Positions 15,418-59,513 of a stretch of 64,000 nucleotides of DNA are shown piece after piece. The translations under genes and the position numbers were made by a program. Each line of letters opens with the position of its first letter. Position 1 is the first letter of the stretch. Where the stretch lies: sequence record MF327008; one strand, 5' to 3'. This DNA comes from Shigella phage Sf24. The notes beneath the pieces are model-generated. The model did not search any database and was not told where the DNA came from. It saw only the letters and a program-made list of their open reading frames with translations.

Positions 15418-18400
15418 ATGGCTACTTTAAAACAAATACAATTTAAAAGAAGCAAAACTGCAGGTCAACGCCCTGCTGCTTCAGTATTAGCCGAAGGTGA
15501 ATTGGCTATAAACTTAAAAGACCGTACTCTTTTTACTAAAGATGACTCGGGAAATATTATTGATTTAAGCATTTCTGCCGGTGGTAACATTAGTGGAAAT
15601 ATTACTCAAAATGGTGATTATTTACAAAACGGCACGTATAATCTTAATGGAAATCAGTTTGTTTATGCAGGAAAGTATATTGAATTCTTGCCAAAAACTG
15701 CTGGAAATGGTGCTTGGGCAAATCAGCACACAAATAAAGCTCCAATTTTCACCGATTTGAGTTCAACTACTTCAACTTCTGAATATCATCCGCTAATTAA
15801 ACAACGTTATAAAGATGGAACGTTTTCATTAGGGACTTTAGTTTCTGAAGGCTCAATGAAGATACACTATATCGATGAAACTGGCACTTCAAAATATTGG
15901 ACTTTCCGACGTGATGGTGGTTTTGTTGTTGATAGTGGTAGTTTAACTGTTACTGCTGGAAACATATCTGCTTCAGGCAATATTAATTCGGCATCAGGGG
16001 TTGTTTCAGCTCCTCAAATTAATACAAAAACCATTGTTTTAGATACAAAAGCATTTGGACAATATGATTCGCAGTCATTAGTTCAGTATGTTTATCCTGG
16101 CACAGGTGAAACAAACGGTATAAACTATCTTCGTAAAGTTCGCGCAAAATCAGGTGGTACAATTTATCATGAAATAGCTTCAGCTCAAACTGGAAAAAGC
16201 GATGAAATTTCGTGGTGGACTGGAAATACAGCCGTTAATAAACAAATGGGTCTTCGTAATGATGGTGCAATGGTATTACGTCGTTCACTTGCTATTGGCA
16301 CAATTACTACAGATGAAAACGTAAATAACTATGGATCTGCTGGAGCAATGGGAGAAAAATACATTGTTCTTGGAGATGCGTCAACTGGACTAGCTTATAA
16401 AAAGACAGGAGTTTATGACTTAGTTGGTAGTGGTTTATCTGTTGCTTCTATCACTCCCGACAGTTTCCGTAGTACGCGTAAAGCAATTTTTGGACGTTCT
16501 GAAGACCAAGGCGGTACATGGCTTCTTCCTGGTCAAAACGCTGCTCTTCTTTCAGTTCGTACAGATATTGATCAAAATAATAACGGTGATGGTCAAACTC
16601 ATATTGGATATAATAGTAACAGCAAGTTTTATCATTATTTTAGAGGCAGAGGCCGAATGGCTGTTGGAATGGCTGAAGGTCTTATTGTTGAGCCTGGAAT
16701 TTTAGATATTAAAACTGGTTCAAATACTGTTTCTATTAGAGCTGATGGCGGAATTTCATCTACTCAGCGTCTTTCATTGCAGAATGGTATATTTTTATCT
16801 TCTGATGGAAATAACAACGGTATATCGTTTAAAGCTTCTAGCAGTATAGATGGAACTAAAACTCTTAATTGGGATGCTGGTACTCGTGCAGGTCAAAACA
16901 AAAATACAGTAATTTTAAAAGCATGGGGAAATTCATTTAATACAAGTGGTGGAACTGATAGACATACTGTATTTGAAGTTTCTGATTCACAAGGATACTA
17001 CTTTTATGCTCAACGTACTACCCCTGCATCCGGTCAAACAGTAGGTCCTATTAATTTTAAATTTAATGGTACTGTAGAAACCGGTCATATCAATGGATTA
17101 GGTAATATTACTTTATCTGGGGCAGTTATAGCAGATTCTGCTAATATTAAAGGACCGCTAAAAATATCTAATGCTAATACAGCTGATGCTTTTAGAATAT
17201 GGAACGCTGAATATGGAGCCATTTTCCGTCGTTCAGAAACATCATTGCATATTATTCCTACACTTAAAGATGCAGGGGAAAATGGTGGAATAAGTAATCT
17301 TCGCCCATTAAGTATTGATCTTTCAAACGGATTTGTGCAAATGCATCATTCTCTTTCTGTGGGGAATACAGTAAGAACGAATGGATTGTTTGCTGTGGAT
17401 ACTTCAGCTGCTCTTGTTGCAATTAACAGTCACTCTCGTGTTAATGCTAATTTCAGAATGCAATTAGGACAATCATCTTATATTGATGCTGAATGTACTG
17501 ACGCTGTGCGCCCTGCTGGAGCCGGTTCTTTTGCTTCGCAAAATAACGAAAACGTCCGTGCCCCATTCTATATGAATATAGATAGAACTGATACAAGCAC
17601 TTATGTTCCTATTGTGAAACAAAGATACGTGCAAAATAATAGTTGCTATTCTATTGGTACTTTAATTAATGGTGGTAACTTTAGAGTTCATTATCATGAA
17701 GGTGGCGATGGTAGTTCTACAGGCGTAGTTATAAAAGATTTAGGATGGGAATTTAATAAAAACGGTGATTTTTATTCTCCTGGTAAATTAGGCGCTGGAA
17801 ATATTAGAATAGGTACTGATGGTAATATCACGGGTGGTTCTGGTAACTTTGCTAACTTGAATACAACTTTAAACCGTAAAGTTAATTCTGGTTTTATTAC
17901 TTATGGAGCAACTGCAGGTTGGTACAAGTTTGCAACAGTAACAATGCCTCAAGCTACATCAACCGTTTCAATTACAGTCACTGGCGGAAATGGATTTAAT
18001 TCTGGATCATTTAATCAGTGCGCAATTTCTGAAATTGTTCTTCGTACAGGAAACAATAATCCTAAAGGATTAAATGCTGTTCTATATAGAAGAGGACTAA
18101 ATTCATTTAGAGATATTGCTTGGGTTAATACATCTGGTGATACATATGACATTTATGTTAATATGGGAACATATGCTAATCAGTTGATATTTAACTATAG
18201 TTCTGTTGATAATGCCACAGTTCAAATTATTGGCGCATTCAGTTCAGCTCAAAATCCTGTTGATGCATTGCCAGAAACATATGTTAAAGGTCAGGTAGCA
18301 GATGTATTGACTAACTTAGTTGATTCTGGAAAAACGAAGCGTTTTGTTGCTGAATCTGAAATAGCTATTAATAATCAAACTGGATTACGTATTACGAGTA

Positions 18401-19281
18401 ATGGTGATAAATCTGGTTCAAATTCAGTATTATTCAGAAATGATGGATCAGCGTTTTATATTCTTTTAACAGATAAAAACGCAGCAGATGGAAATACGAC
18501 TGCCACAGAAGGAGATTGGAATGGTAAACGTCCTTTCCAAATTAATATGACTTCTGGTGAAGTAACATTCGGAAATAATATTAATATTTATGGAAACGGA
18601 AGCATTACTTGGACAAAAGCCGGAGCAAACCCTAGAAATATGAGAATATTTCATGCAGGTGATGCTTCTCGTGGTAACCGTATTGAAATCGCAGATGATA
18701 CTAATTATATTGCTTACTTTGAAAAAACTCCAGGTGGAGCTAACCGCTTTGTAGTTAATGGTGCTACTGTAGCTGGTGTTAATCAAATGAATTCATTTGG
18801 TATTAACATCAATAACGCGCTTGGTGGAAATAGTATAGCATTTGGTGATAATGACACGGGTATTAAGCAAAACGGCGATGGATTATTAGACATTTATGCG
18901 AATGGTGTGCAAACGTTCCGTTTCCAAAACGGTGATTTGTACTCATATAAAAATATAAATGCCCCAAACGTTTATATTCGTTCTGATATTCGCTTAAAAT
19001 CTAATTTCAAACCTATCGAAAATGCGCTTGATAAAGTTGAAAAACTTACTGGTGTCATTTATGATAAAGCTGAATACATCGGTGGAGAGGCAATTGAAAC
19101 TGAAGCGGGTATTGTGGCTCAAACGTTACAAGACGTTTTACCAGAAGCTGTCCGTGAAACAGAAGACAGCAAGGGTAATAAAATACTCACTGTTTCTTCT
19201 CAAGCCCAGATTGCTCTTCTGGTTGAAGCTGTGAAAACGCTTTCTTCTCGTGTAAAAGAACTTGAATCTAAACTTATGTAA
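15418..19281 (+). CDS. 37: Long tail fibre distal subunit gp37, 1287 aa, with C-terminal intramolecular-chaperone-like domain
   Basis: ORF track; N-terminus [21 protein letters not shown]; C-terminal ~100 aa (RSDIRLKSN...[15 protein letters not shown]...) resemble auto-cleaving chaperone domains of phage fibres. Confidence 0.85.
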
Positions 19282-19282
19282 A

Positions 19283-19310
19283 AGAGGGCTTCGGCCCTCT
19301 AAGGATTTTT
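19283..19310 (+). terminator. CUUCGG-type hairpin between genes 37 and 38 (possible attenuator)
   Basis: AGAGGGC-TTCG-GCCCTCT followed by AAGGATTTTT; T-run is weak. Confidence 0.35.
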
Positions 19311-19311
19311 A

Positions 19312-20097
19312 ATGGCAATTGTAGGTGTTCCTGGCTGGATTGGTGAATCTGCCGTGAATGAAACAGGACAGCGTTGGATGGATGCTGCAATGAGAGCAGT
19401 CCGTGTTTCAGTTCCCGGTTGGATGAGCTCAATGGCCGGACAATCTAAAGAAGTATATTATAGCATTGGTGCTAGTAATTCTTATAATAAAGATACATTA
19501 ATAAACTGGATAAAAGCACAAGGGTCCACGCCTGTTGTTATTACTATTACAGGAAATATCGTTTCTTCATCAGCGGGTCAACCATGTTTAGATTTTCCTA
19601 GTTCATTAACTAACTCATATGTAACGCTTAATATTAATTCGGGTGTACATGTCTGGGGTCGTGGTGGTAATGGCGGAAATAATTCTGCAGGTGGCGCAGG
19701 TGGTACTGCTATAAACAATGCAATAGGAACCAGATTACGTATTAACAACAATGGGGTTATTGCAGGTGGAGGCGGCGGCGGCGGTGGCGGATACTATTCT
19801 CCTTTTTCACAAATGAAATTAACCTTTGGGGGTGGTGGCGGTCGTCCATTTGGTGCTGCTGGCGGGTCTGCTAATATGGAACAGGGCGCTACTGCTGGTA
19901 CTATTTCTGCACCTGGTAAAGGGTCTGTCAATGGTATCTATAATGGCGGGAATGGCGGTGATGCTGGTGCCGCAGGTGGTAAATGTAATATTCGTGGGCA
20001 AGGATCAGAATATAACGGCGGTGCGGCCGGTAAAGCTGTTACTGGTAATGCTCCAACTTGGACTAAGGTTGGTACAATATATGGTTCAAGAGTATAA
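19312..20097 (+). CDS. 38: T2/T6-type receptor-recognising adhesin gp38, 261 aa, glycine-rich motifs
   Basis: ORF track; MAIVGVPGWIG N-terminus; several Gly-rich blocks including a G9 run separated by variable segments. Confidence 0.8.
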   Translation: MAIVGVPGWIGESAVNETGQRWMDAAMRAVRVSVPGWMSSMAGQSKEVYYSIGASNSYNKDTLINWIKAQGSTPVVITITGNIVSSSAGQPCLDFPSSLTNSYVTLNINSGVHVWGRGGNGGNNSAGGAGGTAINNAIGTRLRINNNGVIAGGGGGGGGGYYSPFSQMKLTFGGGGGRPFGAAGGSANMEQGATAGTISAPGKGSVNGIYNGGNGGDAGAAGGKCNIRGQGSEYNGGAAGKAVTGNAPTWTKVGTIYGSRV

Positions 20098-21059: not shown

Positions 21060-21071
21060 TAACTATACCAC

Positions 21072-21224
21072 TCAATTAGTTGACTTTGTTATAATATCAT
21101 CAGACGCTTGATTTGTAAACTGGTCTGTGTTATTTTCTTCAAAAATTTTTTCTACGAATTCCTTGAACGACTCGCGTTCCTGAGCTACATTATGCTCGAT
21201 TACCTTTTCAAGATTATGACTCAT
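21072..21224 (-). CDS. Small hypothetical protein, 50 aa
   Basis: Hand-translated; ATG overlaps the arn stop (ATGA); below ORF-track size cut-off. Confidence 0.3.
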   Translation of the reverse strand: MSHNLEKVIEHNVAQERESFKEFVEKIFEENNTDQFTNQASDDIITKSTN

Positions 21225-21499
21225 TCGAAATAATCTTCAATTTCGTAATCATGGACGTAAATCATTATAGTTTTTAATACATCATCAATACTTTTTCCTG
21301 GAGCTGGAATTACGTAAAAATATCCTGCTTTTGAGAGGTCTTTATAAGTTCCAATCAAGAAATCATTATTCTCAAGATGTAGTTCTTCAACTAATTCATT
21401 AACAATTGAGTGGTATAAATTTGGTAGAAACTTATATAGCTTTTCTAGAATATCAATTTTGATTGTGTATTGAACCACGGATTGAGAATCAATAATCAT
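21221..21499 (-). CDS. arn: Anti-restriction nuclease protein Arn, 92 aa
   Basis: ORF track; size and position next to asiA as in T4. Confidence 0.75.
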   Translation of the reverse strand: MIIDSQSVVQYTIKIDILEKLYKFLPNLYHSIVNELVEELHLENNDFLIGTYKDLSKAGYFYVIPAPGKSIDDVLKTIMIYVHDYEIEDYFE

Positions 21500-21582
21500 A
21501 GACCTTCCCCTTATGTTTCTGTTTGCGATTAGATTCTTTAAACGCTTTCTTCTTATCCTTATGAACAGAAGCTTTATTAAAA

Positions 21583-21801
21583 TTATGTTTTGCGACTAAA
21601 TTGTTCATAGTGCTGAATTACCTCTCTCAAACATTTGCATGTGAATGAAAACTTTTTAGCTACACCACATTCAAATATATGTTCTCTTAAATCGCGTGTG
21701 TCAGTATATCCCATCTCAACGATAAAATGCCGTATTAGATTTTTATCTTTATCATTGAGAGAATTAAAATAATCGGATTTTGAATTAATTTCCCTGGCCA
21801 A
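21583..21801 (-). CDS. Hypothetical protein, 72 aa, Cys-containing
   Basis: ORF track; T4 arn.x position. Confidence 0.4.
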   Translation of the reverse strand: MAREINSKSDYFNSLNDKDKNLIRHFIVEMGYTDTRDLREHIFECGVAKKFSFTCKCLREVIQHYEQFSRKT

Positions 21802-22081
21802 ATTGAATCACCTTCAGTTGACGTTTTAATTCTTTTATCATTTCTTCGTTCATCGCAATATAAAGATCGCGTAAAGCAGGTTTTAGCATGTCATTTATTA
21901 TAGAACTAAATGGACACACATAATCTTTTCCTACAAGCTTTTTGGTGAATTCCATATCACAGAACTTAAATCCCGGCTCATTGGCATAAATTCCCCAATT
22001 AGTTGACATCATTTTATTAGCATATTCCAGTGCCTGGATTTGATTCATAATTCCATCAATTTGAAACTTTTTAATATTCAT
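21785..22081 (-). CDS. Hypothetical protein, 98 aa
   Basis: ORF track. Confidence 0.4.
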   Translation of the reverse strand: MNIKKFQIDGIMNQIQALEYANKMMSTNWGIYANEPGFKFCDMEFTKKLVGKDYVCPFSSIINDMLKPALRDLYIAMNEEMIKELKRQLKVIQFGQGN

Positions 22082-22542
22082 TAGTAAAGGTCCTCAGAGT
22101 AAAGTTCTTTTTCACTACCACCACGTTCAATACGTACTTGTCCAGCGTAAGTTGCAATAATCATTGCTTCTTCACGTGTCCAATAATTACTATATTGGTC
22201 AATAAACCCTTGGTCATCATCACAAACTTGTTGAGTAACTAATTGAGGTTTAACTACATCTAAAACTTCTGCCATATCTTTAGAATAATGACGAGCACCT
22301 GGAATAATAAGAGTTCGTCCATCTTTTAATTTAAAACGGTTGGCTGCACAGACAATTCGTCGTTGATACTTTTGGTTTTCATCCCAATATGCAGGCTGCC
22401 AACAGATTTCAGGAACTTCTTTCAGAATATCTTCTTCTGTGCATTTATAACCATGCGCTTTAAATTTTTCAACAAGACTTTCTGGAGTTTCACGAGATAA
22501 AGGAACATTCAGCATTTTTAAACGATTAATAAATGGGTTCAT
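22081..22542 (-). CDS. Hypothetical protein, 153 aa
   Basis: ORF track; start/stop overlaps with neighbours. Confidence 0.45.
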
Positions 22543-22868
22543 TTAAACCATCCTTTAATACGTTGCCACAAAGTTTTCTGCTGAGCTTTGTTAACACCAA
22601 TTGAACGAATAACCGGTTGAGATTCCTGGAATTCTTTATAATCGGCAAGGTAAATTTCGTAAGCTGCATCCGTAAATGAACTTATCGCTGCCATAAAATT
22701 ATTGCGAATACCTACTGGAGCATCTTTACTTTCACGAATAATCATGTATTTACCAGTCTTAATCTTTACGATAGTTCCAAGATAAGCTCCGTGGTACCAA
22801 ATATCCCAACCCTCTTGAGTAGGTTCTGCGCAACGACGAAGTTCATTAACAATTTCTAACTTGTTCAT
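22539..22868 (-). CDS. Hypothetical protein, 109 aa
   Basis: ORF track. Confidence 0.45.
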
Positions 22869-22878
22869 TATTTATTCC

Positions 22879-23514
22879 TCACAGTTCAGATGCTACAGTG
22901 ATTACAGCTTCAATGTTTTCTGCCGAGCGTTTAATGTCAAGATACACATTACCGTTTTTAGCGATTTTACATGACATTCCGATGTCAGTAAATTTCTGAA
23001 TATGATGTTCCATCATTTTGTATCCAAAAATTCGCATGTTTCCATTGTTGTTAATTTCAAAATTGCGAATTCCGTGAGTGCGTTTTTCTAAAATAGCGAG
23101 ATAGTTACTGCGATAAGTTTCAACCTTTTTAAGAACAAATCCATTTTCATCTAAAAGTTTTAACATGAGGTCTTTATCTTCTTCCATATCGGAAGTAATC
23201 TCGCGAGCTTTACGAGTTGCTCGTTTTTTCAGTAGTTCCGGAGCATTTTCTTGTGCGTATAAAGTTGCTGCATTTGAAATAATATCCTGAGCTTCACCAG
23301 TAATGATTAATCCATCACCAGATTTCTCCACCAGGCCTTTTTTAATCAATACCCCAATATTACTATTAACTACTGCGTTACCTAAATCTGGATGCACCTC
23401 ACGAACTTCTGCGGCTGTAATGAAATCTTTCTTAGCAATAGTAATTAAAATCGCAGCTGTTTTTTCATTCAGAACATCGTTAGAAGCTTTGATGATGTAA
23501 GTTACTTTAGACAT
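22879..23514 (-). CDS. motA: Middle-transcription activator MotA, 211 aa
   Basis: ORF track; MSKVTYIIKASNDVLNEKTAAIL... matches T4 MotA as recalled. Confidence 0.9.
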   Translation of the reverse strand: MSKVTYIIKASNDVLNEKTAAILITIAKKDFITAAEVREVHPDLGNAVVNSNIGVLIKKGLVEKSGDGLIITGEAQDIISNAATLYAQENAPELLKKRATRKAREITSDMEEDKDLMLKLLDENGFVLKKVETYRSNYLAILEKRTHGIRNFEINNNGNMRIFGYKMMEHHIQKFTDIGMSCKIAKNGNVYLDIKRSAENIEAVITVASEL

Positions 23515-23537
23515 TTTCTAATCTCCGTAATTCTGTA

Positions 23538-23600
23538 TCAGTAGTTGATAGTTGTATAGTACCACAGTATGCTTTGGTTGTAAACCGTTTTGTGAAAAAA
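23538..23600 (-). promoter_or_regulatory. T4-type early promoter upstream of motA
   Basis: Minus strand TTTACA - 17 bp - TACTAT with conserved GTGGTACTATACAACTATCAACTAC block and A/T UP element. Confidence 0.6.
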
Positions 23601-23609
23601 TTTTTGAAA

Positions 23610-23637
23610 TAAAAAAGGGAGAGCCGAGGCTCTCCCT
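23610..23637 (-). terminator. Rho-independent terminator downstream of gene 52 region
   Basis: Hairpin GGGAGAGCC-GAGGCTCTCCC (23617-23636) followed on the minus strand by TTTTTTATTT. Confidence 0.65.
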
Positions 23638-23787
23638 AAAATTACTGCTCAAACGCGATAACTATCGTGATAACACGTTGAATTCCGAACGCAAGAAGAC
23701 CTCCTGCTACGGCTGGAACAACACCTAAACCAGCCAGTAAAATGCTACCGGATACTAATGCAGCGCTTGTAATACCTATGAATGGAC

Positions 23788-25116
23788 TCATTTGATTTCC
23801 TCTAAATCTTTGGTGTATTCTGTAACTACATCAGTAGTTTTCCAATATTCGTTTTCTTCTTTTTTAGCTTTAGCTTCTTCAGCAAGTTTCTTTGCTTCAT
23901 CAGAAGTCATATGAAAAATATTCATACCAACTAGTTTATCAACATAAGAAGAATACATCTCAATTTTAGAAAGTTCTTCGGTCAGTTCTTTACGAGTTTT
24001 ACCCTGTACAACAATTTCACCTGAAATTACTTTCTTAATGAAATGTGCCTTGGCAAAGGCTAAACGAAAAGCTGACTCAGTTTCTTTGATTTTGTTATCA
24101 ATTCGTTTTTGGACATAAGTTTTACGAATTTCAACAAAGTCTTTAATTAAATCGACTACGTTATCGTAAACTTGTAGTTTTCCTTTCTCATTAATAACCG
24201 TAATATTCTGAGAACGACGCTCAATCAACCCGAAGTCTTTCATAATTTTTGCATGGCGTTCTTCTTCATTATCGCTCAAAGAATATTCTTTACGGAATTT
24301 AACTTTGAAGCCAAAACCATGCTCACCACAAGCATCATCCCACGTAATGAAGCCTTTATCTTCAAGCGGGTCTAAGATTTTACTCACATAAGTTTCACGA
24401 TCATACTTATACGGAATCTCAGTGATATGCATTTGAGTTCGTGAAGTAAACTTGTACGTTCCACGAATTTCATATTGACCGTCAATTTCAACGACTTCAC
24501 CGCGAAATTCTGGGAATTCTACCTTCGGTTTAGTTACTTTCTTTCCTTGAAGAGCTTGCAATACAGCTTTCTTGACAGAAGAAACGCTATGAGGAAGAAT
24601 GTAAGTTGCATAACCAGTTGCAATACCGGAAACACCGTTAAGAAGAACAGTAGGAATAATAGGCAAATAGAAAGCAGGCGGAATGTGTTCTTTATCTTGA
24701 TGTACCGGAGCATATTCAGTATCTTTATATACGTTATAGAAATTTTTACTTACACGAGCAAAAATATAACGACTTGCCGCTGCTTTTTGAACGGTACGAG
24801 AACCAAAGTTTCCTTGACCATCTAACAGAGGAAAGTTATTATTCCAAGTATTAGCCATCAAAGCACCTGCGTCTTGTGCAGAGTTTTCACCATGATGATA
24901 TCCAAGGTCTGCTACACCACCTGCAATAGAAGCGAGTTTGTGAAACTTATCTTTATTTCCTCGTGCCAAATCAAGAGCTCGAGAAATAACAAATCGTTGA
25001 ACTGGCTTAAATCCATCAATCATATTTGGGATAGCACGATTTTCAACCGTGTACATAGCATAAGCCAATGCTTCATTATCAATGATACTTTTTAAATCGC
25101 GATTATTCAGTTGCAT
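23788..25116 (-). CDS. 52: DNA topoisomerase II medium subunit gp52 (GyrA-like), 442 aa
   Basis: ORF track; GyrA/ParC-like N-terminal region; size as in T4 gp52. Confidence 0.9.
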   Translation of the reverse strand: MQLNNRDLKSIIDNEALAYAMYTVENRAIPNMIDGFKPVQRFVISRALDLARGNKDKFHKLASIAGGVADLGYHHGENSAQDAGALMANTWNNNFPLLDGQGNFGSRTVQKAAASRYIFARVSKNFYNVYKDTEYAPVHQDKEHIPPAFYLPIIPTVLLNGVSGIATGYATYILPHSVSSVKKAVLQALQGKKVTKPKVEFPEFRGEVVEIDGQYEIRGTYKFTSRTQMHITEIPYKYDRETYVSKILDPLEDKGFITWDDACGEHGFGFKVKFRKEYSLSDNEEERHAKIMKDFGLIERRSQNITVINEKGKLQVYDNVVDLIKDFVEIRKTYVQKRIDNKIKETESAFRLAFAKAHFIKKVISGEIVVQGKTRKELTEELSKIEMYSSYVDKLVGMNIFHMTSDEAKKLAEEAKAKKEENEYWKTTDVVTEYTKDLEEIK

Positions 25117-25253
25117 AAATTTACCATACTAGTGAATGTAGTGCCATAATAACATCAGAAATGAAAAGCACGACTTGAATTAATCCGAACATTACTCCAT
25201 AATATAGTGCTACCAATAAAGTAGCAAGGGCTAATGAATAGCCCAAGATTTTC

Positions 25254-25412
25254 TTAATCATTAGTAGATAACAACACAAATGTTAAATATGCACACATAC
25301 CCTGGGCTAAAGCTTGTGAAAACACACTGCTAGCATCGATACAGATAGTTAAAACACATGCTACTATCCAACAAATAAATGAAATAACTCCTAATAATTT
25401 TGCGATATTCAT
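25254..25412 (-). CDS. Small hydrophobic membrane protein, 52 aa
   Basis: Hand-translated (MNIAKLLGVISFICWIVACVL...); below ORF-track cut-off; in the T4 ac/stp region. Confidence 0.3.
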   Translation of the reverse strand: MNIAKLLGVISFICWIVACVLTICIDASSVFSQALAQGMCAYLTFVLLSTND

Positions 25413-25419
25413 ATTTTCC

Positions 25420-25500
25420 TCACTGGCGTCCGAAGACGCCTTTGTTTTTAAGATTGTTACGATAGAACTGCATCACATGTTCGTTATGGAAATTACTCAT
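25420..25500 (-). CDS. stp: Stp peptide, 26 aa
   Basis: Hand-translated [26 protein letters not shown], essentially the T4 Stp peptide as recalled; below ORF-track cut-off. Confidence 0.7.
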
Positions 25501-25665
25501 ACACACCACACATTTTGCATAAACGTTCAAAACAGATAAATCCGCCACCTACACACATCACGACAGCCACATTATCATTAAGAGGTAGACCTAAAGCCGT
25601 AAAGATTCCAGTCAATGTGAATAAGGCTAAAACTAATAGGTAACCCATTACAAATAGAGCTTTCA

Positions 25666-26124
25666 TTAGTATGCCTGCAAAACAAATTTAAAGTTATCAG
25701 CCAACATACGGTTCATTTCTTCAAGTGTTTGATACTCAGAATGATGATTACGAGTAAACGCTAAAGCTAACTGACCTTTTCCAAATCCTGTCGTCAAAGG
25801 TTTCATCTTAGAAGCAGGAAGATAAAATACTGCATATGGAACATTGTTATTTGCAATAGTACGCGCAAGCTGAGACCGACGTTGACGAATATGACTTAGA
25901 ACTGCGCTGAATCCTTGCTTAGAACGTTGATTACCTACATAAAATCGTGCAGACACACATGGATTACTAAATGGACGACCATCTAATTTACTTACTAAAA
26001 AGTAAAATCCAGGTTTAGATAAAATATCTTTATGTGGAACTCCCAAAAACCATTCACCACCCTTGATTGTACCAATAACAGTAGCACCTGCATCATTCAG
26101 ATCAGTAACAGTCATATATTTCAT
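25666..26124 (-). CDS. ndd: Nucleoid disruption protein Ndd, 152 aa
   Basis: ORF track; size/position and sequence recalled as T4 Ndd. Confidence 0.8.
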
Positions 26125-26182
26125 ATTAATTTCCTCTAAATTATTTTCTACTCCAAGGCCGCATGAATACGCGGCCGATAAA

Positions 26183-26398
26183 TTAATCGTCGCAGTCGAC
26201 GCTCAATTCCCAAAACTCTTCTACAGTATAAGTTTCAGTATCATTTTCAATACAGAAACGTTCATTACTGTTATTTGTTAAAGTAGCATTAACTGTCGGT
26301 TTCTCGCTAGTGCTCTTAAGAGGTGAAATACGAATTAACTGATCACCGTTATCTAAACAAAAAATTTCACCAACTTTTACATCTTTAAAACTTTTCAT
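26183..26398 (-). CDS. Hypothetical protein, 71 aa
   Basis: ORF track. Confidence 0.4.
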
Positions 26399-26513
26399 AA
26401 TTCACCTCAAGGAGTATAAAATCCAAATGCAGTTGTTGACCATCCCATCCAATATGGAAAATTTGCACCAATGTAAAACATAAGAATATAAAACCAAATG
26501 TTTAGTAAATTCA

Positions 26514-45907: not shown

Positions 45908-46104
45908 TTTGAATGCTCTATAATTAATTTTAAGGCTTCTTCGCTGACAAAAATTTCATCAAGACCTTCTTCTATAACCCAATCAACCATACGAAGTTGA
46001 TTAGTTAAGAGCTCACATACGAGCTCCTTGTTATAATCTTTAAATAGCTGGTCAATACGTTTCTTATGGGCTTTCTTAAGCTGACGCTTATTTAAACGAG
46101 CCAT
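45904..46104 (-). CDS. Hypothetical protein, 66 aa
   Basis: ORF track. Confidence 0.4.
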   Translation of the reverse strand: MARLNKRQLKKAHKKRIDQLFKDYNKELVCELLTNQLRMVDWVIEEGLDEIFVSEEALKLIIEHSK

Positions 46105-46622
46105 TAATAACCTCGGTCTTGACGAGCGAAGTTTTCAGCATTTTTCAGGTAATAAAGTTTAAAGATTTCTTCAGCTGACATTCCAAGAGCAATAAATTTA
46201 TTCATGAAAAAGTGAAATTGGTCAATCAGTTCAAATTTAATTTCAAGCTGATCTTCGGGAGATAAATCTTGAATTTTCTTGGATTGCATTTCAGAATAAC
46301 GTTTCTTCCAAGGTTTCCATACAGCAGAAGCTTCTTTTTCACCATTACTCATACCACCAAGAGAAGTATATAGTTCGCGAGTTTCATCTGCGATATAATC
46401 GTCTTGGTTTCGCAACCAAGCAAGAACTTCTCCTGCGGTTTCAAGTGAATCAGGATGACGATTTGTTTCTGGTTTATCATTAGCCAAACGAATCTGTAAA
46501 TGCCGCTGCATGTCAAGCATAACCTGCAATGGGTCAATACTGTGCATAATATACTCAGCATATGCACGATTTGCTTTATCAACACCTTCGATCAAATGAG
46601 CACATTCATTAAAGTGAGCCAT
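46104..46622 (-). CDS. 56: dCTP pyrophosphatase gp56 (MazG-like), ~172 aa
   Basis: ORF track ORF 46104..46637; start taken at MAHFNECAHLIEG as in T4 gp56. Confidence 0.85.
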   Translation of the reverse strand: MAHFNECAHLIEGVDKANRAYAEYIMHSIDPLQVMLDMQRHLQIRLANDKPETNRHPDSLETAGEVLAWLRNQDDYIADETRELYTSLGGMSNGEKEASAVWKPWKKRYSEMQSKKIQDLSPEDQLEIKFELIDQFHFFMNKFIALGMSAEEIFKLYYLKNAENFARQDRGY

Positions 46623-46682
46623 TATTTTTCCTTTCAATTCATTAATAAGTTAAATAATTATATCATTTGAGTATGTAAGCAA

Positions 46683-50989: not shown

Positions 50990-52417
50990 CTAAAATTTTA
51001 ATTCATTTGCCAAAGCATCTAACTGAGCTCGAGTAGATTCATTTCTTTGATAGCGATTCTGCTCAGCCTGAATCTGTTGTGAACCTGCTACTTCGTTCAC
51101 TTCAGTTGGAGTAGAATCTTGTTCAATTTCTACCCATTTCTGATTTCCTTTTTGAACACCCATCAAAAACTTATTCCATTTATTCTTATCGCCATATCGT
51201 GATTTGATTTGCTTAATGAGTTGTTGTTCAGCAGCTGCTAGCTCCTCGGTTTCAATGACCGCAAGCATAAAATCAGCTGTTGCTGGAAGACCAGCAGATT
51301 CTGCAATATCGCTCATGTTAACATCGGAAGAGTCCCAAGCTTGTTTACCAACCTGCGCTGCGGTCCAAAGAACAGTTTCGGTTTCAACAGCAAGAGCACG
51401 CAATTCCTCTGCAATAGCTTTAACAGTTGTGTAACTATTTTCTGAATAAACTCTAATGCGGCAAGATTTACAAATACCTAGATAGTCGACAATAATGATT
51501 GTTGGAACAAAATTCTTCTTGAGCTTCAATTCATTCAAGAGAGACCTGAATGTATTAGCGTCTGCTCCACCAGTAGGATATTGCTTAACGATTAAACGAC
51601 CGAGAGTAGATTTCTCACGCCATTTTTCCATTTTTCCTTTATATTCGGCGTAAGAAATATGTCCATCATCAATATCGTCAAGAGAAACATCGAGCATGTT
51701 AGCATCAATACGTTTAGCACAGACTTCTTCTGCCATTTCCATGGAGATATAAAGAACGTTATGACCAAGCTGCAAATAATCTGCTGCTAATGAGCAAAGT
51801 CCTAATGATTTACCAACGTTAACGCCAGCCATTAAAACGTTCAGTGTTCCTGTTTCAGCTCCGCCTTTTGTAATTTTATTCAAAATACGAAGTTTAAATG
51901 GAACCTTACGAGCTTTATTCATATAAGATAGCCAGCGTGCTTCGTAGTCATCCATCCAATCATGACCAACGTAGCTATCAAATGAAATTGATAATGCTTG
52001 GCGCATGATGTCAGGAATAGCACCTACATCTGGCATTTTCTTATTTCGTTTTTCCGGAGGAAGCTCAGCATTAGTTTGAATTTCGATTATTTTAGACGTA
52101 GCATTAAACATCGCCCTTTGCTGAACATATTTTTCTGTTTCTTTTACTAACCAACTATGGTCTTCCGGAGAATCAGCTAGTTTTGAAATAAGTGTTTTTA
52201 CACCAGAATATTCTGTTTCAGTAAATGAACTATTTTCTAATGCAACATTTAACGCATTAATAGATGGAACGCTATGATACTCATTAACATGAGATTTAAT
52301 TAATTTGAATGTATTTTTAGCTGGACCACTTTCAAAATATTCTGAATCCATATATGGCCAAACTTTTGAAAAATAAGCTTGATCAAATATGAGATGAGAA
52401 AGAATAATTTCTACCAC
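50990..52417 (-). CDS. 41: Replicative DNA helicase gp41 (DnaB-like), 475 aa
   Basis: ORF track; Walker A GVNVGKS; length as T4 gp41. Confidence 0.9.
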   Translation of the reverse strand: MVEIILSHLIFDQAYFSKVWPYMDSEYFESGPAKNTFKLIKSHVNEYHSVPSINALNVALENSSFTETEYSGVKTLISKLADSPEDHSWLVKETEKYVQQRAMFNATSKIIEIQTNAELPPEKRNKKMPDVGAIPDIMRQALSISFDSYVGHDWMDDYEARWLSYMNKARKVPFKLRILNKITKGGAETGTLNVLMAGVNVGKSLGLCSLAADYLQLGHNVLYISMEMAEEVCAKRIDANMLDVSLDDIDDGHISYAEYKGKMEKWREKSTLGRLIVKQYPTGGADANTFRSLLNELKLKKNFVPTIIIVDYLGICKSCRIRVYSENSYTTVKAIAEELRALAVETETVLWTAAQVGKQAWDSSDVNMSDIAESAGLPATADFMLAVIETEELAAAEQQLIKQIKSRYGDKNKWNKFLMGVQKGNQKWVEIEQDSTPTEVNEVAGSQQIQAEQNRYQRNESTRAQLDALANELKF

Positions 52418-52426
52418 ACTTACTCC

Positions 52427-52783
52427 TTAAAAGAATTTAAATTTTTTCTTTGACCTTTTATTAAATGCATCTTGCAGTTGCATTGTAATACATTTTTCTA
52501 CATGAGGAGCTAACTCAGCTTTTCTTTCTTGGTCAAGAACAGCAAAGTCCATTACAACCTTTCCATCAACCCAATCCAGTTTAGTTACATACACTATATG
52601 TGTAGAACCATCTTCTAGTTTAATGACAATCTCCTGGATAACATTTTCCATAGCGGATTTAATTATCTTAAGAGACTCATTAAAAAGACGTTCTTTTCTT
52701 TCTTTTTCCCCCTCCGAAGAGGGGGATTCATCGATAATTTCTAAATCTAAATCATCTTTACTCATTAAATTCTTCCATATCAC
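52427..52783 (-). CDS. 40: gp40-like head assembly protein, 118 aa
   Basis: ORF track; assigned by position between 41 and uvsX and by size. Confidence 0.55.
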   Translation of the reverse strand: MIWKNLMSKDDLDLEIIDESPSSEGEKERKERLFNESLKIIKSAMENVIQEIVIKLEDGSTHIVYVTKLDWVDGKVVMDFAVLDQERKAELAPHVEKCITMQLQDAFNKRSKKKFKFF

Positions 52784-53939
52784 TTAACTGCTCGAGGTCA
52801 GTTTCTAAATCAGCTGCTGATTTACTTTTACTTTCTGGAGATTTAAATTTTTCAACCTTTGAGTTAATCAATTCATCAACTTCAGCTTCAACAATTTCAT
52901 TACTATCAATAGCACCTAACTGATAAGCACGTTTAATAGCATCTCGGAATGGCTGATGCTTAAATAAAGGACCCCAGAATGTAGTGCAGTTGGTATCTTT
53001 TGCACGCCAAGATTTTTCTTCGCGAATCATCTCACCGGTTTCTTCGTCAAGAAATTCACGAGCATACCAGCCATTTTTAGGTTTTACCACAAATCCTAAT
53101 TCAAGAGCCATATCTAACAATCCAGAATAAGGATCGATGCCACCGTCAAATTTAACATCAATAAAGAATTTACTTTTTTCTTTAACGGTACGAGATTTTT
53201 CTACATTTAGAACAAATTGATACCCCTGAAGATCAGAACCATCTTTAATCTGGCGCTTACCGATAATGAATACAGTATCAGCCGAATACATTACGCCTGT
53301 ACCACCTGTCATCACGGTTTTACTAAACATTTCAATTGTTTCAATTGTATGGTTAACCGCAACACATGGAATATTTTTAATGCTAAAGTAAGGAGTAACA
53401 ATACGGAATAATGACTTCAGTGATTTAGCACGAGTCATATCTGCCACAGATTTTTCATTCAAGGCATCTTCAGTTTCTTTCTTAGAAGCCATATTACCGA
53501 TTGAGTCGATGAATACAATAACTTTTTCACCGCGCTCAATAGCTTCAAGCTGATTCACCATATCAATTTTTAGCTGTTCAACTGACTGAATCGGCGTATG
53601 AATTACTCGTTCTGGGTCAACCCCCATGGATCGCAAATAAGCTGGAGTAATACCAAATTCGCTATCATAGAATAGACAAACCGCGTCAGGATATTTGTTC
53701 AAATATGCCGCAACCATAGTCAAAGACATATTTGATTTAAAGTGTTTAGAAGGCCCTGCGAAAATAGTTAAACCAGACTGCATACCGCCATCAATCGCAC
53801 CAGAAATAGCAATATTAAGCATTGGAATTTTTGTACGAATTACATCCTTTTCATTAAAGAATTTAGATGTAGTCAGTTCAGCAGTCATTTTAGAAGTGGA
53901 AGCTTTAATCAAACGGGATTTTAAATCTGCAATAGACAT
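52758..53939 (-). CDS. uvsX: UvsX recombinase (RecA-like), 393 aa
   Basis: ORF track; Walker A GPSKHFKS; C-terminal half as recalled for T4 UvsX. Confidence 0.9.
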   Translation of the reverse strand: MSIADLKSRLIKASTSKMTAELTTSKFFNEKDVIRTKIPMLNIAISGAIDGGMQSGLTIFAGPSKHFKSNMSLTMVAAYLNKYPDAVCLFYDSEFGITPAYLRSMGVDPERVIHTPIQSVEQLKIDMVNQLEAIERGEKVIVFIDSIGNMASKKETEDALNEKSVADMTRAKSLKSLFRIVTPYFSIKNIPCVAVNHTIETIEMFSKTVMTGGTGVMYSADTVFIIGKRQIKDGSDLQGYQFVLNVEKSRTVKEKSKFFIDVKFDGGIDPYSGLLDMALELGFVVKPKNGWYAREFLDEETGEMIREEKSWRAKDTNCTTFWGPLFKHQPFRDAIKRAYQLGAIDSNEIVEAEVDELINSKVEKFKSPESKSKSAADLETDLEQLSDMEEFNE

Positions 53940-54016
53940 TCATTTTTTCCATAGGCATCATTATATTTTCCTCACTGGTTAAAGATAGAGTAATTATAAC
54001 ACAATAAATTTAGGCA

Positions 54017-54865
54017 TTAATCAACTGCTATTGGATGAATAACATTAAACTTATGAAATGCTTCTGATTTTTCTTTACGTGAAACGCACATGCGAAGAAC
54101 CTTTAATGGTTCGTCTTCTTCACCCAACGATTTTCGTTTTTCAATATTAGAAGTTTTCCAACGAGCTTGCTCTGGAAACTCTCTATTGATTTGCTCAAGC
54201 GCTCTATTATGTTTAGAATTACTACGAATTGAACTGCACCCGCCAGGAGCTTGTGCTTTTCCAGATACAACCAGATATTTGAACAAGGCCAAATGCGGAT
54301 AACCTTGATTAATTAAATTGAGAAATGCATACATATCTTCGCACAAATCAATTTTTCCATACCCAATTTGTTCTGTCGTAAGTTTTCCAAGGTCATACCA
54401 TGTATTCGTGAATCCATATGAATTTTCACGATAATTACCCCAAGATGAAGTAATTTTAAAAATTGGTAGGCGAGCATGACCATGATAATACCCGCAATCC
54501 ATGGCATCCTCAACGTATTGAATCAATTCATAGAACTGTTCACGGGTTAATTGATTAATTTTATCTACGCAGCGACGATCATCTTTCTTTCGCATTGAGC
54601 TCATACGAATAGTAGTATCATCGTCAATCATCCAGATTCGTTGACCTGCATACATATCAGTAATTGCTTTACGAGTACCGGCAATTCCGTTTACATCATC
54701 AGGAATAGTTATAATTTTAGCTCTAGACCCATAGGCATCATAATAAGCTTTTTCTTCATGTTCACGCACTACAATATGGGGTTCATAATCAGTCGGAAAC
54801 ATATCAAGGGCAGAAACTGCCCCGACACGCTGATAACTTGGAATTACGAATTGAATCATTTCCAC
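54017..54865 (-). CDS. Putative glycosyltransferase (DxD motif), 282 aa, at the beta-gt locus
   Basis: ORF track; WMIDDDTTI acidic motif typical of GT-A enzymes; not the T4 beta-glucosyltransferase sequence I recall. Confidence 0.5.
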   Translation of the reverse strand: MEMIQFVIPSYQRVGAVSALDMFPTDYEPHIVVREHEEKAYYDAYGSRAKIITIPDDVNGIAGTRKAITDMYAGQRIWMIDDDTTIRMSSMRKKDDRRCVDKINQLTREQFYELIQYVEDAMDCGYYHGHARLPIFKITSSWGNYRENSYGFTNTWYDLGKLTTEQIGYGKIDLCEDMYAFLNLINQGYPHLALFKYLVVSGKAQAPGGCSSIRSNSKHNRALEQINREFPEQARWKTSNIEKRKSLGEEDEPLKVLRMCVSRKEKSEAFHKFNVIHPIAVD

Positions 54866-55596
54866 TCACCTTTATAGTCTTTTTTCACAATATGAGTTTC
54901 GCCAGTATTCCACCAATGATCAACCAAGTAAAAATGACGAGAATATACATGAAGACTTCCGACATTCCATATAATAGAACCTGCTTTATACTGACGAGTT
55001 GAATCGCCTGCATTCAAATCAGATACTAATTTATCTAATACGTATTTTTGCCATGCATAATCATTACGGAATCCGAAGACCACGTCATTTGAGCGCATGC
55101 TTACTACTGCATTGACTTTCTTATCACGAATCAGGTACTGTACTGTATTAGTACACATGAAATCTGACATACCATCTTTATTGTAGTCAAATTGCATGGA
55201 TGGACGAGTATAAATCATGATACCACGTCGAGAATCAGGATTTTGACCAAGTTCAGCTAAACACATATCATACTGGGCATAGTTATCTTCTGACCAAATA
55301 GCCCAACCATAATTCGAGTTAATTTCGCCTTTAGAAGATGCTACTTGTTGCCAAATCTTCGGTGTTTCACCTGGAATATCTTTAACAAACAAACTCTTAG
55401 ATTTATACCATTCAAGTTCGCGCTGAATGTATTCATCATTAAGAGCGCCAAAAATAAACGGTTCATCTGCTACAAATGATGCGCCAATAATTTCAATAGT
55501 TTTAACACCGGTTTTATCAACTACGAAATCTTTTTCCTTTAATGCAAGCCCCAAATGAAGACGGATTTCTCCAACTGTCATATAATCGTTAATCAT
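54856..55596 (-). CDS. 42: dCMP hydroxymethylase gp42, 246 aa
   Basis: ORF track; thymidylate-synthase-like fold sequence; length as T4 gp42. Confidence 0.9.
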   Translation of the reverse strand: MINDYMTVGEIRLHLGLALKEKDFVVDKTGVKTIEIIGASFVADEPFIFGALNDEYIQRELEWYKSKSLFVKDIPGETPKIWQQVASSKGEINSNYGWAIWSEDNYAQYDMCLAELGQNPDSRRGIMIYTRPSMQFDYNKDGMSDFMCTNTVQYLIRDKKVNAVVSMRSNDVVFGFRNDYAWQKYVLDKLVSDLNAGDSTRQYKAGSIIWNVGSLHVYSRHFYLVDHWWNTGETHIVKKDYKGEWK

Positions 55597-55749
55597 TTAA
55601 ACCTCAATTGATGCATTCATATTTAATTTGTAACAGTAATAAACTCCAACCTATAATAAGTGGCGGAATCATAAGAGGAACTGTTACGCTATAGTATATA
55701 CTTATTATAATCATCAAGATTAAAAGCAACACTGCTATAATTTTGCTTT

Positions 55750-56001
55750 TCATTCCTTCTCTCTGATGATAATTACCTGATTTGGTTGTGCAGACTTTTT
55801 AGTTTCACCCGCAATTGACCAAATAAATGTAATAAACCAACCAATAATTGACCAGTTAAACAGTAAAGATGTGAAAAAGATTCCTACTGTCGATTTTGAC
55901 CCACGCATCAAGGCGATAAACCATGGAAGCATGTATATAATAATAGCCAACACACCTGAAACTAAAACCATAAAAATTGAACCTGCTACTAAAGTTTCCA
56001 T
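55750..56001 (-). CDS. imm: Superinfection immunity protein Imm, 83 aa
   Basis: ORF track; two TM segments; size and position as T4 Imm. Confidence 0.8.
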   Translation of the reverse strand: METLVAGSIFMVLVSGVLAIIIYMLPWFIALMRGSKSTVGIFFTSLLFNWSIIGWFITFIWSIAGETKKSAQPNQVIIIREKE

Positions 56002-56008
56002 GTTTTCC

Positions 56009-56389
56009 TCACTTAGTCAAATTTTTTACACATGAATTATAAGAATTCACTACATACTCCATCGGAGCATTTTTACCGGTACGCCATTGGTAATTATTAG
56101 CCCAATTAGCCCAAATTTCGGCGCAGTAGTTTTCAATTTTTTCTTCGCGTGTAATTACATCAGAATTACGATATGCTTGAGCAGATTCATCTGGACGAAT
56201 AGCTTCGTCAAAATTCGCCTGCATTTGTTCGACTGTTTGCTTTGGAGCTTCTTTATAACACTTGACATTAGGATTATAAAATTTGCTTGAACAGTTTACA
56301 ATTTTTCCTACATCAGACTGATTTACTACCGGTCCTTGAGCTACACAACCAGTAAGACCTAATGCAATAACCAAAATAGCGATTTTCAT
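56009..56389 (-). CDS. Putative lipoprotein, 126 aa
   Basis: ORF track; signal peptide with lipobox LTGC. Confidence 0.45.
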   Translation of the reverse strand: MKIAILVIALGLTGCVAQGPVVNQSDVGKIVNCSSKFYNPNVKCYKEAPKQTVEQMQANFDEAIRPDESAQAYRNSDVITREEKIENYCAEIWANWANNYQWRTGKNAPMEYVVNSYNSCVKNLTK

Positions 56390-56399
56390 AATAATTTCC

Positions 56400-56648
56400 T
56401 CAAATGCAAGTAGTAATTACTCCAGTAGTGCTTATGCAGGTATTACCCATTTGCACACCTAAAGATCCATTTGTATTCACATGAAGATTATCATCAATTT
56501 TAACTGATATTTTACCATTAGTGTGAATAACGGTGCTAGATTCAATCACAGGTTGAGTATCATTTTCAACACTAACAAATGGAACTGCTGCTAATGCAAC
56601 TAAACAAACTGCTAAGCATCCCATAACAATTTTCATTTTATTCTCCAA
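56400..56648 (-). CDS. Small secreted/membrane protein, 82 aa
   Basis: ORF track; N-terminal hydrophobic signal-like segment. Confidence 0.4.
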   Translation of the reverse strand: MENKMKIVMGCLAVCLVALAAVPFVSVENDTQPVIESSTVIHTNGKISVKIDDNLHVNTNGSLGVQMGNTCISTTGVITTCI

Positions 56649-56654
56649 ATCCGT

Positions 56655-56720
56655 ATTAGTTGATAGTTGTATAGTACCATGGAAGAACAGGGATGTAAAC
56701 AGTTTTGTGAAAAATTTTTA
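56655..56720 (-). promoter_or_regulatory. T4-type early promoter
   Basis: Minus strand TTTACA - 17 bp - TACTAT with conserved TGGTACTATACAACTATCAACTAATAC block. Confidence 0.6.
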
Positions 56721-56781
56721 ATGAATTTACAGGACCTAGAATCATCTGTTTTTCATAAGTATAGATTTATATTACTTGTAT

Positions 56782-56804
56782 GAAAAAGGGACCAGGAGGT
56801 CCCT
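56782..56804 (-). terminator. Rho-independent terminator downstream of gene 43
   Basis: Hairpin GGGACC-TCCT-GGTCCC on the minus strand followed by TTTTTCATAC. Confidence 0.6.
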
Positions 56805-56816
56805 AGATTTATTCTA

Positions 56817-59513
56817 TCAGCCAAACAGGAAGTCTAACGAAGCTTTTTCTTCATAGTCCATACCAGCCGATTCACACATGCCTGCAAGCGGTTTAACAAA
56901 CGATTTTTGGAACAAAGTTGAGTAGTCAATCCAAGACAGTACGTCAGAACGAATTTCTTTTGGAAGTTCTGTACCCGACGGCCAAGCAATGCATTTGTCA
57001 CCAAATGGATTTCCTTCACGCAATGGAAGAACCATTACTTTATTTCCATCCAAAATTGGAGCTACACCTAAACCGCTAACAGCTCGACGATAAGTTAGCA
57101 CACCACGAATATGGAACGGACATTTAAATCCTGGCCAACCTTTATCATCATATTTCGCTATATCGTTCGCAGTTTTTACTTCAGCAATAACTTTATAGTC
57201 AAGTTGACGATATTCTTTCTCGAAGTTCTTGTAATATTCTTGGACAGACTCTTCACCTTCCTGAAGAATACGACGAATACTTTCTTCGAGAGCTTCTTGG
57301 ACCGCTTTAGGCGTTGAACTCTGCTGAGTTTCCATACCCATGATTTTTAGATGCGGTTCAGCAAATCGCTTATCTTCCATATCATAAACGTTCAGAGCAT
57401 AACGCTTTTTCGCTTTCCAAAATCCACCAACGCCCTTTGAACCAAGTGGAGGGCAAGAAATAGCTTCACGGTCCATATGCATCAGATGCTCGCGGTTATT
57501 CATATAATCACATAACTCACGATATGCAACATCAATCATAGGTTCCATCTTTTTCTTACCAAACTGATTCATGAATTCAACTAAATCATTTTGTTCTTTA
57601 AAGCGATCAAGACCTACTTTTTCAATAACTTTATCTACACAAACATATACCGAATCAGTATCACCTGCTGCGATGAAATCTTCACCATTAGTTCCACATA
57701 CTTTATTCAGATATTCATTAATTTTGCGAGCAATCCACTGAATACCGACTTGACCGAAAATTGTGATAGCAGTAGCATTTCGCAAATCATAGTAGCGGAA
57801 ATGAATATTACCAAGAGCACCATAAAGACTGTTAATAAGAATTTTACGGTTCAGCTGATTTGTGTTAGCAAGTGTAGCTGCTTTTTCACATTCTTCAATC
57901 AGACTATTGAGAACAGATTCGGTGTAATTCGATAATTCATTTAAGAAATCATCACTGAACTTAACATATCGTTCAACTTCTGGTTTAGTTGAGCAAGACC
58001 CTGCACCTTTCATAATAATCTTTTTAATAGCTTCGGCATTCATTTCTTCCGCGAACATTTTCTTTTTCCAATCTTTACGCTGGAAAAATACTTTAGCGAT
58101 TTCCTTTGGAATGATACCTTCTTGGTGCTTATCATACATCCATCCATTCGGAGAGCAAGAATATTCATCACTTGGCTTAGGAGCTGTTCCTGTGATATAT
58201 TCATGAATTGGATGAACTTTAAACTGCCCGCGAATAGTCTCAGGACTAATGTTAACCTGACGAATAATGCTAGGATACAGAGACGTCAAGTCAAAACTCA
58301 TAATGTATCGACGAGCAATCGGTTTAGGTTCAAACACAAATGCACCTGGAAAACTCTGTTTAACATGCGAACCTTGTTGAGGAATAACCTTATGTTCACC
58401 TTTAAGTGAGTTAAAAATAATAGCGTCCCAAGTTTTAATAGGACTCATTACACCAGAAAAAGGCATTTTAGCGTAATAAGACATACTTAAAACTAGATCG
58501 ATAAACCCACGAATTTTATCAATTGCTTGAACTGATTCTACGTCAATGATGTTATAACTAATGTATCGTTGATGATTAGTCTCACGAAGTTTATTAATAG
58601 GACCATCGTACGGCAATTTACCTTTTTTGGTTTCATGTTGAGCAACTGATTCCAAAGAGAACGATGGCAAATTAGTAAATGCGAATTTCTTGTACAAATC
58701 TAAATAATCAAGAATAGACACGCCATCAATAGAATAAATTTCTTTGCTACCGTACATATTTTGAATTAGTTTAGATTTTACCCGACCGATTGGAGAGAAG
58801 CGTTTCATACTACGTTCACCGAGAACCATTTTAACGCGATTCATGATATACGGAACGTCAAATCCCTCAATATTCCAACCAGTAAAAATAGCAGGTCGTT
58901 TCTGTTCCCAGAGATTAATATATTCCATGAGCATATCGCGCTCATTATCAAATGGCATATAAATTACTCGGTCAAGAATTTCTTGAGGAACTTCATCACC
59001 ACCTTCACAGTCAAGCTTAGCAGCTAACTTTGCATCCCATTTTGATACTGAACCATACATTGAATTCAAAAGGTCGAAAACATAAAAACGATCATCAATT
59101 GAATCGTAATGAGTGATAGCATCAATTTCATATTCAGCTTTCATTGGGTCAGGAAATTTATCACCAGTAACCTCAATGTCACAGTTAGCTACACGAACAA
59201 ATTTTCGGTCATAAACAATTTCTGAACCGTATGTATCACTGATATAAGCGAGTTTAAAATCGTTCATACCGAGAGCTTCGAGACCGATGTCTTCCATTCG
59301 TTTCATCCAATCTCGAGCATCTTTCATTGATGGAAATTTTTGAGGAGCGCAGTTTTTACCATAGATGTCTTTGTATTTTGACTCTTCCTTACAATGCCTA
59401 AACATAGTCGGAAGATATTCTACTTCACGAGTACGTTCCTTTCCGTTTTCATCAATATAACGTTCAACAATGTTATTTCCAACTGTTTCGATAGAGATAT
59501 AAAATTCTTTCAT
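56817..59513 (-). CDS. 43: DNA polymerase gp43 (family B), 898 aa
   Basis: ORF track; exo motif CDIEV, polymerase motif AAGDTDSVYV; length as T4 gp43. Confidence 0.95.
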   Translation of the reverse strand: MKEFYISIETVGNNIVERYIDENGKERTREVEYLPTMFRHCKEESKYKDIYGKNCAPQKFPSMKDARDWMKRMEDIGLEALGMNDFKLAYISDTYGSEIVYDRKFVRVANCDIEVTGDKFPDPMKAEYEIDAITHYDSIDDRFYVFDLLNSMYGSVSKWDAKLAAKLDCEGGDEVPQEILDRVIYMPFDNERDMLMEYINLWEQKRPAIFTGWNIEGFDVPYIMNRVKMVLGERSMKRFSPIGRVKSKLIQNMYGSKEIYSIDGVSILDYLDLYKKFAFTNLPSFSLESVAQHETKKGKLPYDGPINKLRETNHQRYISYNIIDVESVQAIDKIRGFIDLVLSMSYYAKMPFSGVMSPIKTWDAIIFNSLKGEHKVIPQQGSHVKQSFPGAFVFEPKPIARRYIMSFDLTSLYPSIIRQVNISPETIRGQFKVHPIHEYITGTAPKPSDEYSCSPNGWMYDKHQEGIIPKEIAKVFFQRKDWKKKMFAEEMNAEAIKKIIMKGAGSCSTKPEVERYVKFSDDFLNELSNYTESVLNSLIEECEKAATLANTNQLNRKILINSLYGALGNIHFRYYDLRNATAITIFGQVGIQWIARKINEYLNKVCGTNGEDFIAAGDTDSVYVCVDKVIEKVGLDRFKEQNDLVEFMNQFGKKKMEPMIDVAYRELCDYMNNREHLMHMDREAISCPPLGSKGVGGFWKAKKRYALNVYDMEDKRFAEPHLKIMGMETQQSSTPKAVQEALEESIRRILQEGEESVQEYYKNFEKEYRQLDYKVIAEVKTANDIAKYDDKGWPGFKCPFHIRGVLTYRRAVSGLGVAPILDGNKVMVLPLREGNPFGDKCIAWPSGTELPKEIRSDVLSWIDYSTLFQKSFVKPLAGMCESAGMDYEEKASLDFLFG

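Follow-up and report, generated by a model that had tools for sequence, protein, structure and literature searches.

[quoted passage not shown] This activity is presumably EC 2.4.1.28. All positions given here refer to the window, i.e. the whole stretch of 64,000 nucleotides that was analyzed. The window gene is an already characterized enzyme in its usual place and nothing new in itself; all of this is already on record for T2, T6, and hundreds of relatives, so that an annotation is confirmed here and nothing is discovered. Its value is practical, as the presence of ba-gt tells annotators which hmC decoration to expect on the phage DNA.

Gene boundaries and genomic context

The ORF is found on the minus strand between positions 54017 and 54865, where it would code for 282 amino acids if started at the GTG. 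The first-pass annotation had described a protein of that length between uvsX and gene 42; the ORF and its flanks were confirmed, but the length has to be corrected to 280 aa. Translation almost certainly begins with the ATG at 54859, 6 bases downstream of the GTG at 54865. The GTG was dropped because the spacing of a Shine-Dalgarno-like AAGGTGA (∼6 nt upstream of the ATG), the ATGA overlap formed with the stop codon of gene 42, and the annotation of orthologues (T2, QOTSP, and Geo are each deposited with an 843-nt CDS that begins at this ATG) point to the ATG. On sequence grounds, the ORF is a real gene, a chance ORF being excluded by its match to PHROG 842 ("beta-glucosyl-HMC-alpha-glucosyltransferase"; E 1.6e-88, residues 1-275) together with a nucleotide identity of 95-99% in 440 phage records. 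Promoter-like sites showed no excess in the interval 52700-56900, with 15 occurrences versus 16.1 in shuffles. A terminator scan also flagged a GC-rich hairpin, GGGGCAGTTTCTGCCCT, on the minus strand at 54807..54823 (ba-gt codons 13-18). It has no convincing T tract, its sequence is the same in T2 and T6, and it may be due to chance.

Table 1. Positions in the window of ba-gt, its key codons, and the neighboring features
Feature	Position	Strand	Evidence or remark
ba-gt / ggt CDS, beta-glucosyl-HMC-alpha-glucosyltransferase (very probable), TAGT family, GT-A fold (structure model)	54017..54859	-	280 aa + stop
Codons D79-D80-D81, DxD motif, putative divalent metal / UDP diphosphate site	54617..54625	-	Sequence; after strand 74-78 in model
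Codon D175 of the ED motif, putative catalytic base (inverting GT-A mechanism)	54335..54337	-	D175 in 69/69 homologues, E174 in 57/69
Codon R11, family-invariant arginine, intact here, His in T2	54827..54829	-	R in 68/68 aligned homologues
uvsX recombinase, downstream neighbor	52758..53939	-	Pfam T4_UVSX_C (E 4.7e-39) and RecA
Gene 42, dCMP hydroxymethylase, makes hmC precursor	54856..55596	-	Pfam Thymidylat_synt (E 1.1e-15); PHROG 160; so annotated in matching phage records
Probable gene 56, dCTPase/dUTPase, start codon uncertain	46104..46637	-	PHROG 173 (nucleoside triphosphate pyrophosphohydrolase; E 3.1e-44) and a dUTPase PHROG
Cassette without homology to T4	53928..54873		946 nt; stands for T4 23556-25496 (1941 nt, segA + beta-gt)

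The order uvsX / ba-gt / gene 42 is common to the window and to the genome records of T2 and T6 that were compared. The gene at 46104..46637 that we take to be gene 56 was named on its position and on established knowledge of T4. The limits of the cassette that has no counterpart in T4 were set by blastn of window 52001-57000 against T4 20500-26400: the homology on the uvsX side (91.5%) breaks off at window 53927, just within the 5' end of that gene, and the homology on the gene 42 side (94.2%) restarts at 54874, where that gene ends. It was claimed earlier that T4 carries beta-gt between uvsX and gene 42, with a length of about 351 aa. Both hold for the T4 record (351 aa exactly), with the correction that the interval in T4 also contains segA, a homing-endonuclease gene sitting between uvsX and beta-gt. 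The window is devoid of segA, and the gap separating ba-gt from uvsX measures only 77 nt (53940..54016; compared with T4 23562..24399).

Family assignment, fold, and conserved residues

Along its full length of 280 aa, the window protein is 98% identical to the T2 enzyme (three records) and 98% identical to ba-gt of T6, which supports the T2/T6-style second-glucose enzyme proposed in the first-pass annotation. The identity reaches 99% with the enzyme of QOTSP (4 differences) and 97% with that of Geo (8 differences), and the gene occupies the same locus in these two phages. In addition, residues 3-207 match the Pfam family PF20691 (TAGT, for TET-associated glycosyltransferase) over profile positions 2-205 of 205, with a score of 38.8 bits for a gathering cutoff of 27.5, and the nearest database homologues carry the same domain. 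The T2 and T6 genes share with the window gene the length (280 aa), the location between uvsX and gene 42, and the ATGA overlap with gene 42, while the DDD, D175, and GGCS motifs of their products are the same as in the window protein. Five substitutions distinguish the T2 enzyme (window to T2: R11H, K92R, I101V, P251S, and V273A) and six that of T6, lesions of two T6 records not counted.

A full-length similarity to T4 beta-gt, which had been named beforehand as an argument against this assignment, was searched for by BLASTP, and nothing significant was found (best E 3.4 over 8 residues). In the same vein, a Pfam scan of the window protein returned no beta-gt domain. T4 beta-gt resembles the window gene in its genomic slot, its use of UDP-glucose, its action on modified cytosine in duplex DNA, and its role in restriction evasion. 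However, it is a protein of 351 aa with a GT-B fold (PF09198) that acts on bare hmC, whereas the class of the window enzyme is GT-A, with 280 aa and alpha-glucosyl-hmC as expected acceptor. Searches with the window protein for solved structures by sequence in the PDB (best E 0.76, spurious) and for NCBIfam families gave no significant relative and no family, respectively. Finally, a second TAGT was sought in the window with an HMM built from 69 homologues, which matched only the ba-gt ORF among 356 stop-to-stop ORFs.

In the structure model, the window protein has a GT-A fold made of one Rossmann-like alpha/beta/alpha domain that resembles solved GT-A enzymes. The TAGT of T6 was similarly modeled as GT-A, sister to GT2, in a 2026 NAR paper (PMC13216743). 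The motif WMIDDDTTI, taken in the first-pass annotation as the mark of a GT-A glycosyltransferase, spans residues 76-84 when numbered on the 280 aa (window 54608..54634) and lives up to that reading, since the modeled fold is GT-A and the DDD triplet directly follows beta-strand 4 (residues 74-78) and is nearly invariant among homologues. An exhaustive HMMER search collected 337 representatives at E <= 0.001, many of them 20-35% identical, and conservation was scored on an alignment of 69 full-length homologues, some only ∼20% identical to the window protein. In this alignment, the three aspartates D79, D80, and D81 are found in 68, 69, and 68 of the 69 sequences, respectively. Besides D80, the residues D175, G186, and G207 are invariant, and I6, P7, R11, D79, D81, G206, and R212 are conserved at 90% or more.

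These positions suggest how the enzyme may work. Since the product of ba-gt would be beta-linked and the donor is UDP-alpha-glucose, the configuration would be inverted at the anomeric carbon, which, for a GT-A enzyme, calls for both a general base and a metal bound at the DxD motif. According to the model, the UDP diphosphate may be bound through a divalent metal coordinated by D79 and D81, and D175, judging from GT2-type enzymes, could be the general base of a single-displacement inverting mechanism. The GT2-like inverting GT-A enzymes used for comparison (SpsA 1h7l, TarP 6h1j, AvpGT 9jma, and the catalytic domains of cellulose and hyaluronan synthases) are only 7-16% identical in sequence to the window protein. 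The latter also differs from them by its expected acceptor, a sugar on DNA, and by the lack of a membrane or carrier-lipid context.

Expected DNA modification and alternative explanations

In T-even phages, the pathway leading from hmC to alpha-glucosyl-hmC and gentiobiosyl-hmC is established. In Sf24, the product of gene 42 would make hm-dCMP and that of gene 56 would remove dCTP, so that replication would build hmC-DNA. The phage alpha-glucosyltransferase would then add an alpha-linked glucose to most hmC residues, and ba-gt, with UDP-glucose as donor, would attach a further glucose to the 6-OH of this alpha-glucose, yielding beta-1,6-glucosyl-alpha-glucosyl (gentiobiosyl)-hmC. The alpha-gt gene is expected beyond the high-coordinate end of the window; in the closest relative, slur03, it is present ∼2.5-3.7 kb past the matching point.

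The composition of the virion DNA has been published for relatives whose enzymes are 97-99% identical to the window protein, and this LC-MS work bears out the earlier proposal of a hypermodification pattern different from that of T4 (PMC13390438). For Geo, EL, and BGP, whose genomes rank among those nearest to the window (97% over 24 kb), HPLC/MS gave hmC, alpha-glucosyl-hmC, and gentiobiosyl-hmC in a ratio of ∼1:2:2, while QOTSP and six other phages of the Durham Collection contained ∼1/3 hmC and ∼2/3 gentiobiosyl-hmC; no beta-glucosyl-hmC was found in any of these Durham phages (PMC13390438). The QOTSP and Geo groups thus differ in their gentiobiosyl fraction (∼2/3 versus ∼2/5) with enzymes that are nearly the same as that of the window. 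Another difference is seen between T2 and T6, whose DNA contains ∼5% and 72% gentiobiosyl-hmC, respectively (PMC6024577). By homology with these enzymes, the virion DNA of Sf24 is expected to contain hmC, alpha-glucosyl-hmC, and gentiobiosyl-hmC, and no beta-glucosyl-hmC. The gentiobiosyl fraction is probably high, because the family-invariant R11 is kept, as in QOTSP.

The residue R11 deserves attention with respect to T2. The R11H substitution is present in all three T2 records that were translated (AP018813 included). The 66-nt 5' allele of T2 was found by megablast in only 8 of the 440 phage records, i.e. seven T2 records and SV76, and it differs from the alleles of RB32 and EC.W14-2 by one base change (CGT>CAT). 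Exact-pattern scans of IMG/VR, which gave few matches, returned 0 contigs with the H allele and 3 with the R allele. Given the ∼5% gentiobiosyl-hmC of T2 DNA versus 72% in T6, R11H is a plausible hypomorphic mutation that may explain the low content of T2. In T6, the two deposited genomes bear different lesions in ba-gt. In MH550421, an amber codon replaces codon 10 (CAG>TAG), and Met20 serves as the annotated start of the CDS. In AP018814, a 3-nt deletion removes one GAT from GATGATGAT and shortens DDD to DD; the motif of the window reads GACGATGAT. These two lesions suggest that laboratory stocks can do without the gene and may have lost it repeatedly.

Such alleles raise the question of whether the Sf24 enzyme could be a ba-gt orthologue that is weak or inactive, leaving the DNA almost wholly mono-alpha-glucosylated, as in T2 with its ∼5% of gentiobiosyl-hmC. 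The enzymes of T2 and T6 are ∼98% identical, yet they are associated with the contrasted contents mentioned above (PMC6024577), and the disabling lesions of the laboratory T6 records imply that a loss of function is tolerated. Moreover, the window protein contains three residues (K92, I101, and V273) that are absent from the compared T2, T6, QOTSP, and Geo sequences, except for I101, which is shared by Geo. However, these residues, like the window differences in general, are located at variable positions of the alignment, the ORF is intact, the residues I6, P7, R11, D79-81, D175, G186, G206, G207, and R212 are all present, the R11H substitution of T2 is not found, and only 4 differences separate the window protein from the enzyme of QOTSP, a phage that is ∼2/3 gentiobiosylated. 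A weak allele is therefore improbable. A related idea is that the allele combining R11, K92, I101, and V273 could set a mono-/di-glucosyl ratio unlike those of T2 and T6 and, more broadly, that the gentiobiosyl content of T-even phages might be tuned by individual ba-gt positions (R11H, for instance) and not by expression or alpha-gt. We consider this rather doubtful and, if true, single-residue tuning would be the fine-tuning of a known enzyme and not a new system.

Two other explanations depart further from a T2/T6-type activity. The functional diversity of the TAGT family leaves room for a transferase with another donor or acceptor, e.g. arabinose or another sugar, bare hmC, or beta-glucosyl-hmC. 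Indeed, many phages have a solitary TAGT without alpha- or beta-gt, the substrate range of the family is incompletely defined (PMC13216743), and many of the 337 representatives collected here share only 20-35% identity. Nevertheless, this is very unlikely for the window protein, given its 97-99% identity to enzymes of phages that were chemically shown to contain gentiobiosyl-hmC and none of the alternatives, the phenotype of the T6 ba-gt deletion (PMC11078745), and a locus with the same neighbors as in T2 and T6. The genomic slot shared with T4 beta-gt could also point to a functional analogue that beta-glucosylates the hmC left free by alpha-gt. This is hardly conceivable: besides the lack of sequence similarity and the opposition of GT-A and GT-B folds, relatives endowed with ba-gt keep between ∼1/5 and 1/3 of unmodified hmC, and beta-glucosyl-hmC is not detectable in them (PMC13390438).

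With a T2/T6-type ba-gt as the preferred assignment, predictions can be made about phage defense. The function of ba-gt has been proven genetically in T6: once the gene is deleted, the DNA contains alpha-glucosyl-hmC only and its sensitivity to Brig1 increases (PMC11078745, Nature 2024). In addition, the BapA enzyme releases no glucose from T6 DNA but does so from the DNA of the T6 ba-gt deletion mutant (bioRxiv 10.64898/2026.02.25.707755). The gentiobiosyl pattern is thus predicted to partly shield the DNA from two enzymes specific for alpha-glucosyl-hmC, the Brig1 glycosylase and the BapA deglucosylase. The phage is predicted to remain sensitive to GmrSD/BrxU-type enzymes and, as some hmC would stay naked, also to Brig3 and other enzymes directed against hmC. 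This information may be used for phage typing and for the choice of therapy phages.

Prevalence of ba-gt and additional observations

A megablast search with the ba-gt region retrieved 566 phage records; the match extends over 80% or more of the query in 471 of them, and 440 show 95-99% nucleotide identity. Many of the matching Tequatrovirus records annotate ba-gt between dCMP hydroxymethylase and UvsX. In comparison with the ∼470 records that contain ba-gt, T4 beta-gt is present in only 29, all from T4 or near-identical phages. Similarly, the combination of alpha-GT and TAGT has been reported as the usual one, alpha- and beta-GT occurring together in only 6 of 753 phage genomes (PMC13216743). 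The presence of ba-gt is therefore the common and well-known state in Tequatrovirus, and T4 is the exception.

Three additional observations were made in the window. The plus-strand region 15418..20097 encodes a long tail fiber distal subunit of 1287 aa followed by a gp38-type adhesin of 261 aa (PHROG 2056, host specificity), which is the receptor-recognition arrangement of T2 and T6 and is consistent with a T2/T6-like rather than a T4-like phage. Between imm.1 and gene 43, a minus-strand ORF of 82 aa (56400..56648) matches PHROG 4189, of unknown function; annotated in T2 as RB51ORF048 and not annotated in T6 MH550421, it is a variable small gene. Finally, a very hydrophobic ORF of 49 aa (55604..55753, minus strand) fills the 153 nt that separate gene 42 from imm and matches PHROG 3610 (E 1.1e-24). 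Geo has it annotated, whereas this gap has no CDS annotation in the inspected records of T4, T2 (AP018813), and T6 (MH550421), and it probably encodes a real small membrane protein.
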